41,694 bases of DNA from a virus (IMGVR_UViG_2529292985_000032), one strand, 5' to 3'. Shown: positions 2,988 to 36,669, counted from the stretch's first letter. A program made the numbers and translations. Notes: a model not told the origin generated them from the sequence alone.

Positions 2988-3002
2988 TTACCTTAAAGGT
3001 GA
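2988..3002. promoter_or_regulatory. Operator-like palindrome TTACC-TTAAA-GGTGA upstream of the lysis cassette
   Basis: Matches the recurring TTACC-N5-GGTAA motif (one mismatch in right half); about 95 bp upstream of the 2893 start. Confidence 0.4.
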
Positions 3003-3220
3003 TATAATTACCCTTTACTTAGAAACCTTTAGCTACTGGAATTTGAATCAATGCTGTTTAATTTTATACACTACCACCATTTAGTTTTCGATCTGCTCGA
3101 TAGTATATAGAGGCTCAACTTTATAAAAAATATATTTTACCGTGAGCTAACTAATATAGTTAGTGCACGCAATGTAACTACCAGTTTGTATTATAAAATT
3201 ATATCAACAAAGGAAACATA

Positions 3221-3905
3221 ATGAGAAAAATTTACCTAATATTAACAATCATAATTTCTGTATTTACTGGCATATATATTGGTGCCAGTCAAACATTACC
3301 ATATAATTTAAAATATTCTCTCAAAGAATATTTTTTATCGGGTAAAAACAATTCACCGATAGGCCATGCTTATTGGTCAAAACGTGATCTAACATATTTA
3401 AAACAAAGGAAAGTTGATATTATTATGCTTGGCGACAGCATCACAGAAACAGGAAGATGGTCTGACTTCTTTCCTTCAGTATCAATAGCGAACTATGGCA
3501 TAGCTGGTGATACCAGCCAAGGAATTAAGAATAGATTAGAACCTATAATAAATGCAAAACCCAAGAAGGTCTTTATTATGATTGGTACTAACGATCTTAC
3601 CAATCATGAAAGTGTACAAAAGATATTAGATAATTATAGAAATATTAAATAGAAACGGAATTACCACTATAATTCAATCAACAATCTACTCTGGCATAAA
3701 CGAAAAGATAAAAAATAAGAAAATAAAACAAATCAATGAAGGTCTTCAAAAATTATCTAATGAGCAACAAATAACCTATCTAGACCTTAACACATCGCTA
3801 TCACCAAATGGGTATTTGAAAAATGAATATACAATTGATGATACTCATTTATCTAAAGATGGTTATAAGGCGTGGATAGAAATTTTAAAACCTTTTATAC
3901 TCTAA
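3221..3905 (+). pseudogene. SGNH/GDSL hydrolase with N-terminal membrane anchor, frame-disrupted around 3630-3652
   Basis: First frame 3221..3652 carries GDSIT (block I) and GTND (block III); stop at 3650-3652; another frame is open 3630..3905 and carries DDTHLSKDGY (block V); the two frames differ by one net nucleotide. Confidence 0.7.
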
Positions 3906-3912
3906 GATCTTT

Positions 3913-3938
3913 AAAGGGGCTATTTGCCCCTTTATCTT
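3913..3938. terminator. Bidirectional hairpin terminator between convergent SGNH and AT3 genes
   Basis: AAAGGGGC-TATTT-GCCCCTTT with T-rich tail on the plus strand and A-run on the other side. Confidence 0.5.
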
Positions 3939-3941
3939 CCA

Positions 3942-4892
3942 TCATCTACCACCTAAAAACAATACTCTTGTTAATGCGATCCTAGTAAATATTTCGTGAG
4001 TAATTATAGACAAAATAAGAGTTATCATAAACATCGCTATACCTTCTCTCATATATTCAGCAAGGATAAAATGAAACATCTGATGCACAAACATAATTGT
4101 TAATGATGCTTTGCCTATTATTTCTAATGGTTTTATATAATTTCCATCAAGTCGTTTAAATAATTCAATAACAACAACAGAAAATACAATATTTATGATA
4201 AAACTGACGAATGGAACACCATACAATGACGTCTTCATGTCAAACATAAAAATTTTTTGATACGCTATCGCAATAAAAAGCAGCACGATAGATACAACAA
4301 TAAAAAACAAAAGCCGTACATTACACTCTTTATAGAATAAACCAACCATTGCCAATGGAACAGCATACAACACAACATTGGCATTTAATGGAATTGGGAA
4401 TTTTACCAACCAAGACAATACATAAGAGCACATTAATAAAATAAAAGCCAAGAGCCACTTATCTTTTGCCACCCTTAGTTTTTCACTAATTAACATCAAA
4501 ACTATAAGAGTGAAAAACATAACAGGAATAAACCAAAAAACACCAAACCAACCAGTCATAACCTGACCACCATAAACCATCTTTATTAGTTGTTTTATCA
4601 TTAATTTTGAATCATACCCATCCCTCATAATATTATAAGAAGAAAACACCACAAATAATAAAATAGAATATGAAAAATAAGGAACGATTAGTGATTTAAC
4701 TTTCCCAACTATAAACTTATTTTTGTCATTGGGCTCTTTAAATAAAATTCCAGAAACGATAAAAAACAATGGCATATGGAAAAGATAAATCACATAAGAT
4801 GATAAGCCACTTATAATATGCGCATAAACAACAAGTATAATTCCGAAACCTTTAACGGCATCAATATAGCCAAGTCTTTTTTTAGTTTCCAT
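3942..4892 (-). CDS. Acyltransferase-3 (AT3) family membrane O-acetyltransferase, Oac-like
   Basis: 316 aa, polytopic; N-terminal AT3 signature (GYIDAVKGFGIILVVYAHI ... FHMPLFF); AT-rich codon usage. Confidence 0.8.
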   Translation of the reverse strand: METKKRLGYIDAVKGFGIILVVYAHIISGLSSYVIYLFHMPLFFIVSGILFKEPNDKNKFIVGKVKSLIVPYFSYSILLFVVFSSYNIMRDGYDSKLMIKQLIKMVYGGQVMTGWFGVFWFIPVMFFTLIVLMLISEKLRVAKDKWLLAFILLMCSYVLSWLVKFPIPLNANVVLYAVPLAMVGLFYKECNVRLLFFIVVSIVLLFIAIAYQKIFMFDMKTSLYGVPFVSFIINIVFSVVVIELFKRLDGNYIKPLEIIGKASLTIMFVHQMFHFILAEYMREGIAMFMITLILSIITHEIFTRIALTRVLFLGGR

Positions 4893-5242
4893 TCTTAAAC
4901 CAAGAAGTTAATTTATTACAAATTGATAGATAACAACAAATCAACAACAATGTCAACATATAAAGTTACATTTATTGCCACTATTCCATGAAAAATAACG
5001 CTAGCAATATCACTAAATAACATCAAATGATTAAAATTTTAATATATAATATATCAATATCAAATAAAACTGTTAACCCCCTCACCAAATTTTACTTTTC
5101 TATAACCACCAAGAAAAGATATAACAACATGCAATACAAATAATAACGAACATTACAATAAAAAATGAAATTTATTTTTTACAAATGACTTCCAAAAAAC
5201 TACATGATATTATTTATTCTTTTTTTACATGTGGAATATACA

Positions 5243-6136
5243 ATGAGAGAACAAAGAAATTTACTTGTTGATTGTATAAAAGGCGGTGCTATCTTTCTTG
5301 TCGTACTCGGACATTGCATACAATTCATGGGGCCAAGCAGCTATAATTTTTTTGATAACTTTATATTTAAATCTATTTATAGTTTTCACATGCCATTATT
5401 CATGGCTGTAAGTGGATATTTATTTTCTGTAACAATAAAAAAAAGGAATATGTGTGAGAACATAATAAATAAATTTCACAAGCTAATAATTACAGCGATA
5501 TCATGGACCATCTTAATTAGTTTATTATTTAATGGTTCGGTAAGTGTTCAGGATATTAAATATCAATTAATATCAGGTCTATGGTTCATTACAACACTAT
5601 TCATCATATCTACTGTTGCATATACAATTTTTTCTATATCCCATAAAAATTTCATATGACTATATGCTTTATTTTGCATAGCAATACTGTTTGCTCCTGA
5701 TGGTTATAATATAAAAATGATAAAATTCCTAGCTCCATTTTTTGGGCTTGGAATGTTATTCGATTACATATTAAAAGTAACAAAACCTCTCCAAGGTAAT
5801 TTAACATTTTTAACAATATTATTTATTTGGGTTTATTTGGTCATAAATTGGAAAGAGAGCTATTATATTTACACGTCAGGAATGAGCATGGATATAAATA
5901 ACTGGCAAGAGCAATCAATTAATAACATCTACAGATTCATATCTGGTCTTATTGGTATATATATAGCAGTGTTTGTTTTCTATATTATTTCAAAAAACAC
6001 CTTATTATTAAATTCACTTTCATTATTAGGCAAACACACCCTTTCAATATATATAATACAAACTTTCATTTTTATTGGATTAGTTAACTCGATGTTATTA
6101 ATGTATATTCGAATGAATATACATATTCACTGGTAA
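5243..6136 (+). pseudogene. Second AT3 family acyltransferase interrupted by one in-frame TGA at 5657-5659
   Basis: Track ORFs 5204..5659 and 5717..6136 are in the same frame; 5660-5716 translates without stops (LYALFCIAILFAPDGYNIK); combined about 300 aa with AT3 N-terminal signature (GGAIFLVVLGHC ... FHMPLF); likely start ATG 5243. Confidence 0.65.
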
Positions 6137-6227
6137 TTGCACCTTTATTTTCGATAGTAATTATCGCATTTTGCATATTGATATCCATTATATTGCAGAA
6201 AGTGCATTTAGCTAATATTATATTATT

Positions 6228-35544: not shown

Positions 35545-35565
35545 ACAGAGGTTTGTGGCTGGATA

Positions 35566-35796
35566 TCATGAGTAGAAGAAGTATGCCAGTTCTGCTTTTG
35601 AGCGCAGCCATTGTCTTGTTTTACAGGCTTTAAAAAGCCCATTCATCAATACTTTACCTGTCATTTTGCGCTTACCTGTTAAGTGAGTCTGGATATAGTG
35701 ACTCGTCGTTCCGGCTTCCTGTGCGAAGGCTTCACGCTCATCCGGAGTAAGTGCAAGCCAGTGCTTTTTGAAATCGAAATGTCCGTTATCGCTCAT
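35566..35796 (-). CDS. Cro-like early regulator (by position)
   Basis: 76-aa ORF divergent from the repressor gene across the operator cluster. Confidence 0.5.
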   Translation of the reverse strand: MSDNGHFDFKKHWLALTPDEREAFAQEAGTTSHYIQTHLTGKRKMTGKVLMNGLFKACKTRQWLRSKAELAYFFYS

Positions 35797-35832
35797 AGCT
35801 ATTGCCTGATATTTATTTCAGATAATAAATAT

Positions 35833-35895
35833 TCACCCATAAGGTAACAAAAATCAAGGATAGTTACCTATGGGGTGCATTTACCTGTTGGGTAA
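35833..35895. promoter_or_regulatory. Immunity-region operator cluster: three tandem 15-bp sites
   Basis: TCACC-CATAA-GGTAA (35833-35847), TTACC-TATGG-GGTGC (35864-35878), TTACC-TGTTG-GGTAA (35881-35895) between divergent Cro-like and repressor genes. Confidence 0.65.
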
Positions 35896-35950
35896 TATTG
35901 CTTTAAATTGAATCATCTACTGATTCATATATGAGGCGATTTTCCAGAAA

Positions 35951-36535
35951 ATGAAAAGTATCCAGGACGTCCGCAGGCAAAATCTCAACGACTTGATCGA
36001 CCGTGAATTCAATGGTGTTCAGACGCGGATGGCAGAAAAACTTGGAACTCAGGCAAATCTGGTAAACCGCTGGGCTCTTGGCAAGAAGGTTATCGGCGAC
36101 CAGGTTGCGCGAAAAATTGAAGCTGCCGCCAATAAACCACGTAACTGGCTTGATATCGATCGCTCGCTTTCTCAGGAGGGTTTTCAGCCTGTTGGACCAA
36201 GCGACATTGGTCAGCTGGCGGCTCACAACCTGGAACGCTGGATGAGTGAAAGCCGCGACCTTTCAACTCAGGGAAAACTTCACCGCGCATCCGGCGTCGC
36301 CCAGGTGACAATCAGCCGCCTGTTAAACAATGAGGTCAGCGTTTCCATTTCCACTCTGGAGAATGTTGCATCTGCATTCGGGCGTCACGGATATGAACTA
36401 CTGATTCACCCGCACGACCCTGCAACTATCAACTATGACCGCTCGCGCTACGCATTGTTACCTGAAACCGAGAAAGCAAAGATCGAAAGTTACATTGAAT
36501 TTGTCATCAACCAGAACGAAAAAAACAAACAATAA
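35951..36535 (+). CDS. Prophage repressor, two helix-turn-helix-like domains, no S24 peptidase domain
   Basis: 194 aa; XRE-type HTH-like segments near residues 20-45 and 115-140; no Ala-Gly/Ser-Lys autocleavage module visible; no obvious SD (leaderless-like). Confidence 0.7.
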   Translation: MKSIQDVRRQNLNDLIDREFNGVQTRMAEKLGTQANLVNRWALGKKVIGDQVARKIEAAANKPRNWLDIDRSLSQEGFQPVGPSDIGQLAAHNLERWMSESRDLSTQGKLHRASGVAQVTISRLLNNEVSVSISTLENVASAFGRHGYELLIHPHDPATINYDRSRYALLPETEKAKIESYIEFVINQNEKNKQ

Positions 36536-36556
36536 AATCATATTTTTCAGTAAGTA

Positions 36557-36580
36557 AGCCGCCATTTGGCGGCTTTTTTA
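36557..36580 (+). terminator. Rho-independent terminator after the repressor gene
   Basis: AGCCGCC-ATTT-GGCGGCT followed by TTTTTT. Confidence 0.7.
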
Positions 36581-36592
36581 TTGTCCATCTAA

Positions 36593-36669
36593 TTACCTTG
36601 CAGGTAATTTTTTTAACTCATATCTATTGACATCAAACCAAATACGCATAATTATTACCTCAACGGTAA
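36593..36669 (+). promoter_or_regulatory. Early-left promoter region with two operator palindromes
   Basis: TTACC-TTGCA-GGTAA (36593-36607), TTGACA -35 at 36627-36632, TTACC-TCAAC-GGTAA (36655-36669) over the -10/+1 region. Confidence 0.55.

Follow-up and report, generated by a model that had tools for sequence, protein, structure and literature searches.

The 15-bp palindrome TTACC-N5-GGTAA that recurs across IMGVR_UViG_2529292985_000032, a stretch of viral DNA of 41,694 nucleotides analysed at its full length (the window), is very probably the operator of the resident prophage's own repressor, Rep, with probable use by its Cro-like regulator as well. An initial annotation had noticed the palindrome at 12 or more sites and had read it as repressor operators spread over many transcription units, in the manner of P1 C1 and not of lambda. 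This reading is supported by the layout of the right and left operators (OR and OL), the overlap of sites with promoters, the shared positions in six genomes and the existing annotation of epsilon15. The window ends exactly at the start codon of the integrase gene int (41694), and with this open reading frame (ORF) closing it the window is therefore an integrated phiV10/epsilon15-type (Uetakevirus) Escherichia coli prophage. Over the immunity and replication region, identity to the Escherichia phages phiV10, PAS61 and phiv142-3, all Uetakevirus, is 97%, and the attachment core ATTGAGTGGGAATGATT, described in phiV10, epsilon15 and ZX5 (PMC9782041), is present at 960-976 as attL, the left prophage end. 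The minus strand carries the early-right, packaging, structural and lysis genes.

The recurrence of the palindrome is borne out by a count of 13 sites. Over the whole window, exact matches to TTACCNNNNNGGTAA number eight against 0.02 expected from dinucleotide-preserving shuffles, rising to 11 against 0.85 with up to one mismatch and to 38 against 12.2 with up to two; the mismatch-tolerant search that the initial annotation had suggested as a check places the motif far above its chance frequency. In a de novo scan of all 5-N(0-12)-5 palindromes in the window, TTACC-N5-GGTAA alone has more than three copies. The accepted set comprises the 11 matches with up to one mismatch and two positionally conserved copies with two mismatches (35496 and 35864). 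A gene map was drawn up from the ORF list together with the annotation of phiV10, and on it each of the 13 sites falls wholly within non-coding DNA, which makes up 9.4% of the window. The remaining 25 two-mismatch matches were rejected as sites, being background-like with 24 of them centred in coding DNA. Eight of the 13 sites are outside OR and OL, and the sites precede eight units or divergent pairs. Every coordinate reported earlier is right, with one mismatch at 2988 (GGTGA) and two at 35496 (GGTGC), and a site at 29860, 18 bp from 29878, is added. The 13 sites are as follows.

2988-3002: operator TTACCTTAAAGGTGA, one mismatch, in the divergent gap between the lysis cassette (minus strand) and the O-antigen acyltransferase-GDSL cargo (plus strand)
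8779-8793: exact operator between the tailspike gene (minus strand) and the antirepressor gene ant (plus strand)
26734-26748: exact operator upstream of the gp3-like/portal/head-tail operon
29860-29874: second operator of the small terminase gene terS, one mismatch, directly before the terS start codon
29878-29892: exact operator of the terS promoter, adjoining the extended -10 TGATACTAT (29900 to 29892, minus strand)
33488-33502: exact proximal operator of P3, the promoter of the DUF1064 operon, adjoining the -10 TTTAAT (33507 to 33502, minus strand)
33550-33564: exact distal P3 operator; its centre is 62 bp from that of the proximal operator, and the -35 TTGATT (33530 to 33525, minus strand) follows 19 bp downstream
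35496-35510: degenerate operator, two mismatches, right after the cro terminator and upstream of the gp42-like and replication genes
35833-35847: cro-proximal OR operator, one mismatch, spanning the -35 and spacer of pR (TTGTTA-17-TATTAT, 35850 to 35822, minus strand)
35864-35878: middle OR operator, two mismatches, with variation in 80 prophages limited to its spacer
35881-35895: rep-proximal OR operator, exact
36593-36607: distal OL operator, exact, 19 bp upstream of the pL -35
36655-36669: proximal OL operator, exact, adjoining the pL -10 (TTGACA 36627-36632, 17-bp spacer, AATTAT 36650-36655)

Several of these sites are fused to predicted core promoter elements. At pL (TTGACA-17-AATTAT, then TACC), P3 (TTGATT-17-TTTAAT, then TACC) and the terS promoter, the T that ends the -10 element is also the one that opens TTACC, and the operator covers about -7 to +8. 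The terS promoter consists of an extended -10, TGnTA(C/T)TAT running into TACC directly after a terminator, in all six genomes compared; in the window this terminator is at 29929-29912. At pR the operator covers the -35 and the spacer instead; it is one of three OR operators that lie between the divergently transcribed rep and cro, and pL has two OL operators. As read from these promoter predictions, the overlap of core elements at pL, pR, P3 and terS is the geometry of a repressor and not of an activator. A further, distal operator is present at both pL and P3, 19 bp ahead of the -35. In the six genomes its centre is 62 bp from the centre of the proximal operator (63 bp at the BUCT711 pL), a distance of about six helical turns. 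In several cases operators follow terminators, namely those after rep, cro, the P-like gene and the gp55-like gene, and because of this the genome reads as a chain of putative modules, each made of a terminator and an operator-promoter.

The six genomes are the window, phiV10, epsilon15, SPC32H, Enterobacter phage Tyrion and Klebsiella phage BUCT711. The motif is strongly enriched in each of the five relatives and occupies the same junctions, which are listed below.

Before terS: a pair of sites 18 bp apart
Before gp3/portal: one site
Between ant and the tailspike gene: one site
Before the lysis genes: one site
Before int (outside the window): one site
OL: two to three sites
OR: three sites
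After the cro terminator: one site
Before the gene that follows the replication genes: a pair of sites

The number of sites tracks the number of promoter-bearing gaps; in BUCT711 the holin gene directly follows the tailspike gene and there is no lysis site, and in phiV10, Tyrion and BUCT711 an extra block of genes beside ant comes with an extra site. The lysis site at 2988 is kept in position in phiV10, epsilon15, SPC32H and Tyrion. The RefSeq record of epsilon15 (NC_004775.2) already annotates seven such sites as 'protein_bind, repressor, lysogeny', among them the counterparts of 8779 (19895-19911), 26734 (2931-2947), 29878 (12-27) and 33550 (35906-35922). The site before int has the form TTACC-N5-GGTAT in phiV10, epsilon15, SPC32H and Tyrion and the mirror form ATACC-N5-GGTAA in BUCT711; as the window stops at the int start codon, the corresponding operator-like site must fall just outside it.

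Alignment of five junctions shows half-sites that are near-invariant, an N5 spacer that varies freely and flanks that have diverged. At 8779, for example, the half-sites are the same in all six genomes except for one T-to-C change in phiV10, and the spacer varies. The exceptions are weak half-sites that are specific to a position and conserved there: TCACC/GGTGA at the cro-proximal OR and lysis operators, GGTAT before int and G/A-N-ACC after cro. One weakened half-site is likewise present at the position of 35496 in phiV10, epsilon15, SPC32H, Tyrion and BUCT711. This conservation of weak half-sites suggests that operator affinities may be tuned.

The same constraint is seen within the population. 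From at least 300 IMG/VR stretches with Rep relatives, the best 80 were taken by their match to Rep and not by the motif, and the region equivalent to 33485-36688 of the window was compared. Rep is 100% identical in all 80 of these best-matching prophages. Variable positions number 2 of 80 in half-sites, 17 of 40 in spacers and 57 of 454 in other intergenic DNA, giving Fisher p=5e-8 for half-sites against spacers and p=0.006 against the other intergenic positions, values that are indicative only as the haplotypes are not independent. Both variable half-site positions sit in the already degenerate half of 35496. As a separate observation, the N5 spacers vary more than the rest of the intergenic DNA does (17/40 against 57/454, p about 1e-5).

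The proteins and the control element at the centre of the system are the following.

35951-36535, plus strand: rep, a 194-aa (amino acid) repressor with an N-terminal helix-turn-helix (HTH) DNA-binding domain, a middle dimerisation domain (MDD) and a C-terminal tetramerisation domain
35566-35796, minus strand: cro-like gene for a 76-aa regulator, phrog_35 'transcriptional repressor'
8870-9127, plus strand: ant, an 85-aa antirepressor matching PDB 5D50_E (anti-repressor; phmmer E=8.5e-46)
8831-8850: LexA box TACTGTATATTCATACAGTT, read from the sequence, in which the CTGT-N8-ACAG core is perfect; the ant start codon comes 19 nt after the end of the box

Rep matches the SPC32H Rep in PDB 5D50_A over residues 1-190 of its 194 (phmmer E=4e-42), is 100% identical to phiV10 gp40 and ZX5 ORF21, is a homologue of epsilon15 gp38, and is about 42-43% identical to the Reps of epsilon15 and SPC32H; it can be aligned with those of epsilon15, SPC32H, Tyrion and BUCT711, and overall identity among the Reps of these phages is 43-44%. 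No S24 peptidase domain is found in the 194-aa protein, for which Pfam gives HTH families only. The helix NLVNRW of its N-terminal domain is invariant in five genomes, and this putative recognition helix matches the invariant operator. The HTH of the Cro-like protein, AGTTSHYIQ-HLT with one variable position, is conserved in five genomes, and because it is as conserved as that of Rep, the Cro-like protein probably shares the operators. Covariation between recognition helix and motif offered no contrast, as all five Uetakevirus Reps share both NLVNRW and the motif, and a protein search with the Rep N-terminal domain returned 12 short fragments only. The only distant phage match, the cI of Pseudomonas PseuP_224, was set aside: it is of S24 type, has a different helix and comes with no comparable palindrome.

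The gene beside 8779 that had earlier been called an SOS gene turns out to be an SPC32H-type Ant behind a LexA box. Since a LexA box and an Ant homologue occur together, induction of the prophage is predicted to be through antirepression and not through repressor cleavage. In SPC32H, Rep is reported to bind palindromic DNA as a tetramer in which the DNA-binding pairs come from different dimers, and Ant to disassemble it (PMC9638917). Its two MDD pairs are about 100 Å apart and have been likened to DNA-looping tetramers (PMC9986798). As SPC32H Rep is tetrameric on palindromic DNA and has such spaced MDD pairs, a clamp on the promoter at the 62-bp pairs, made by one tetramer or by cooperating tetramers, is plausible by analogy.

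A mechanism can be proposed on this basis. The N-terminal HTH pair of Rep would bind the half-sites TTACC and GGTAA in adjacent major grooves, as their centres are 10 bp apart, leaving the central 5 bp unread. The genome would be cut by terminators into separately promoted units, each opening with at least one operator. Where the operator lies over the core promoter, at pR, pL, P3 and the terS promoter, direct steric repression is implied, and the 62-bp pairs at pL and P3 would be suited to a promoter clamp formed by one Rep tetramer or by two units in cooperation. The head/tail operon and the tailspike/ant and lysis/cargo pairs would each have a single operator in front. DNA damage would take LexA off the ant promoter, and Ant would then strip Rep from all operators at once. 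Direct repression of the late units has an even to slightly better than even chance of being correct. The full scheme, in which one tetrameric repressor directly locks nearly every unit of a small podovirus, with packaging, head/tail, tailspike and lysis included, by a 62-bp clamp with -10 fusion or by one isolated operator some 70 bp ahead of a late element, and all units are opened by one LexA-controlled antirepressor, is put at even odds.

The late units are where this scheme is least straightforward. The operators at 2988, 8779 and 26734 are about 65-80 bp upstream of putative late starts or of a conserved late element, distances that are approximate because the promoter candidates picked manually are ambiguous. 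In a sigma-70 consensus scan, matches are no commoner than in shuffled sequence, and the candidates for gp3, tailspike and lysis remain ambiguous. In the aligned Uetakevirus genomes, a conserved block, CATATNNGGTT, followed by a -10-like sequence lies between each single late operator and its gene. The block occurs exactly three times against 0.34 expected (2945-2955, 8740-8750 and 26682-26692, minus strand), with one-mismatch copies at 33508-33518 and 35477-35487, and each copy follows a Rep operator at 8-55 bp in the direction in which transcription runs. The block is a candidate for the core of the late promoters or for the site of an activator. The lysis copy sits within a 14-bp palindrome, AACCATATATGGTT, in phiV10, SPC32H and Tyrion. 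On the other side of the lysis operator, the GGTGA half of 2988 supplies the TG of an extended -10, TGATATAAT (2979-3008, plus strand), aimed at the cargo or conversion genes. This arrangement recurs in phiV10, SPC32H and Tyrion, and a conversion-gene promoter may thus be under the control of the lysis operator too, or may read through it.

A number of points weigh against assigning the palindromes to Rep and against direct repression of every unit. The binding of Rep in this phage, at the late sites as elsewhere, is something that we infer from sequence, and with the Cro-like HTH as conserved as that of Rep, sequence alone cannot name the binder. The silencing of each unit by its own site, and any looping, are likewise predictions. 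The single late sites are off any promoter, so that direct repression there would need looping, a roadblock or anti-activation, and a loop as short as 62 bp is very tight for one tetramer. The 2988 operator falls within the spacer of a promoter-like sequence facing cargo genes that are expected to be on in lysogens. Overexpression of the identical ZX5 repressor lowers the holin and endolysin transcripts by more than 99.9% (PMC9782041), a drop that is consistent with direct and indirect repression alike.

The initial annotation had also allowed that the motif could be the site of a late activator. In the form weighed here, at least the sites at 2988, 8779 and 26734 would serve a phage activator, or Rep or the Cro-like protein acting in class-I fashion from about -70. 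The centring of these three single sites some 65-80 bp upstream of the predicted late starts is compatible with activation, the late promoters lack a good -35 and may need an activator, and the spacing from operator to CATATNNGGTT is free of indels across genomes at gp3 and lysis, with a single 1-bp gap, in the window, at tailspike. A gp55-like 'transcriptional regulator' (29979-30317; a PHROG 536 match, without a match in Pfam, NCBIfam or PDB) occupies the position of lambda Q. Even so, an activator is quite unlikely, as the identical motif lies over -10/+1 at pL, P3 and terS and over the -35 and spacer at pR, which are repressing positions, clusters at OR and OL beside rep, and was given to the repressor by the epsilon15 annotators, and the separate conserved CATATNNGGTT is a better candidate for an activator site. 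The proposal is disfavoured at pL, pR, P3 and terS and survives only at the three single late sites.

The palindromes could instead be mainly sites of the Cro-like protein, which would shut early and late units during lytic growth while Rep acts on a subset or on another sequence. Conservation of the Cro-like HTH in the five genomes that share the motif fits this, and in lambdoid phages Cro and CI share operators. Such a primary role of the Cro-like protein is nevertheless quite unlikely, given that no other enriched palindrome is available for Rep in the window, phiV10, epsilon15 or SPC32H, that the recognition helix of Rep is equally invariant, and that SPC32H Rep is reported on palindromic sites (PMC9638917). 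Cro binding is most likely complementary to that of Rep, with both proteins binding. The idea that the palindromes are non-regulatory repeats, arising by compositional chance, as remnants of duplicated intergenic modules or as targets of DNA-modification or recombination enzymes, is barely credible. The phage does encode a DNA methyltransferase, and pL and P3 share the same layout with 9 nt of identity around the -35 (ATCTATTGA), which could hint at an ancient duplication. On the other hand, the excess of exact copies and the restriction to intergenic DNA speak against chance, the half-sites have stayed fixed while flanks and spacers diverged, both across four host genera and within the population, and the sites are enriched rather than avoided and are linked to promoters.

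By every testable criterion, the predicted immunity system of the prophage is of the epsilon15/SPC32H Rep-Ant-LexA type. It shares the (A)TTACC-N5-GGTAA(T) core, the sites at the terS, gp3, ant/tail fibre, OL and post-replication-gene junctions, a 5D50_A-type repressor without an S24 domain, a 5D50_E-type antirepressor and the LexA box. It differs from epsilon15 in having two OL sites and not three, and the OR triplet and lysis site found here are not among the seven sites annotated in epsilon15; records of phiV10-type phages carry no operator annotation. The resemblance to P1 lies in a single immunity repressor placed, by prediction of occupancy, before many separate units, late and accessory ones included, and in control by an antirepressor. 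In P1, the dispersed C1 operators are asymmetric 17-bp sequences bound by a C1 monomer, and C1 is controlled by antirepressors. The sites described here are in contrast 15-bp perfect or near-perfect palindromes suited to an HTH dimer pair of a tetramer, and the repressor is a homologue of SPC32H Rep that is not known to be related to C1, though no search aimed at such similarity was made.

The many repressor sites in short intergenic gaps beyond the immunity region also recall the stoperators of L5 gp71. Those are asymmetric 13-bp sequences that depend on orientation, lie within transcription units and block elongation, whereas the palindromes of the window are symmetric and are found shortly past terminators, either at a promoter or upstream of one. 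With lambda the prophage shares divergent repressor and cro genes around a three-site OR (35833, 35864, 35881), an OL at the early-left promoter (36593, 36655) and proximal operators that overlap core promoter elements. It departs from lambda in that Rep lacks the S24 autocleavage domain, with the Ant/LexA route in its place, in the extra operators at replication, packaging, head/tail, tailspike and lysis units, and in that no N- or Q-like antiterminator was recognised among the small regulators. The earlier remark that this is not the lambda paradigm is upheld by the share of sites beyond OR and OL and by the S24 domain not being found.

Dispersed repressor sites of this kind are already known, being annotated in epsilon15, and structures of SPC32H Rep and Ant exist. 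For the -10/operator fusion, the invariant 62-bp pairs, the weak half-sites and the population constraint, no description was found in the accessible literature, and earlier work on epsilon15 or SPC32H may cover them; a literature text search on the motif or the operators of these phages gave nothing further. Prophages of the phiV10/epsilon15 type depart from the lambda cascade of immunity-region operators and antitermination and appear to put a repressor site at each unit. They are very common in E. coli, as seen in the number of IMG/VR stretches with Rep relatives, and the arrangement bears on the prediction of prophage inducibility, on the leakiness of late genes and on the engineering of phiV10-based reporter phages.

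The start of terS affects how two of the sites are described. The position of 29878 had been given correctly but had been placed at the start of the small terminase gene, and it lies upstream of the likely terS start, an ATG near 29854-29857. This start, as used in epsilon15, is far more likely than the TTG at 29938 used in phiV10, and the phiV10 annotation of terS appears to be over-extended. The phiV10-style ORF of 224 aa would enclose a terminator hairpin, the extended -10 and two operators.

The region between the lysis and tailspike genes is a low-GC (28-37%) cargo block (3000-6400), in which no full operator is found. It contains an intact Acyl_transf_3 O-antigen acyltransferase gene (3942-4892, minus strand), a second acyltransferase gene that is seemingly split into two ORFs (5204-5659 and 5717-6136) and a short GDSL-lipase fragment (3221-3652). 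A further 12-bp perfect palindrome, GTGACATGTCAC, occurs exactly at 27706-27717 and 29971-29982 and with one mismatch at 9152-9163. It adjoins terminator hairpins at the ends of terL, of the early-right operon (gp55-like gene) and of the structural operon, and epsilon15 and SPC32H keep it at all three of these positions; phiV10 keeps two of them, the third having one mismatch.

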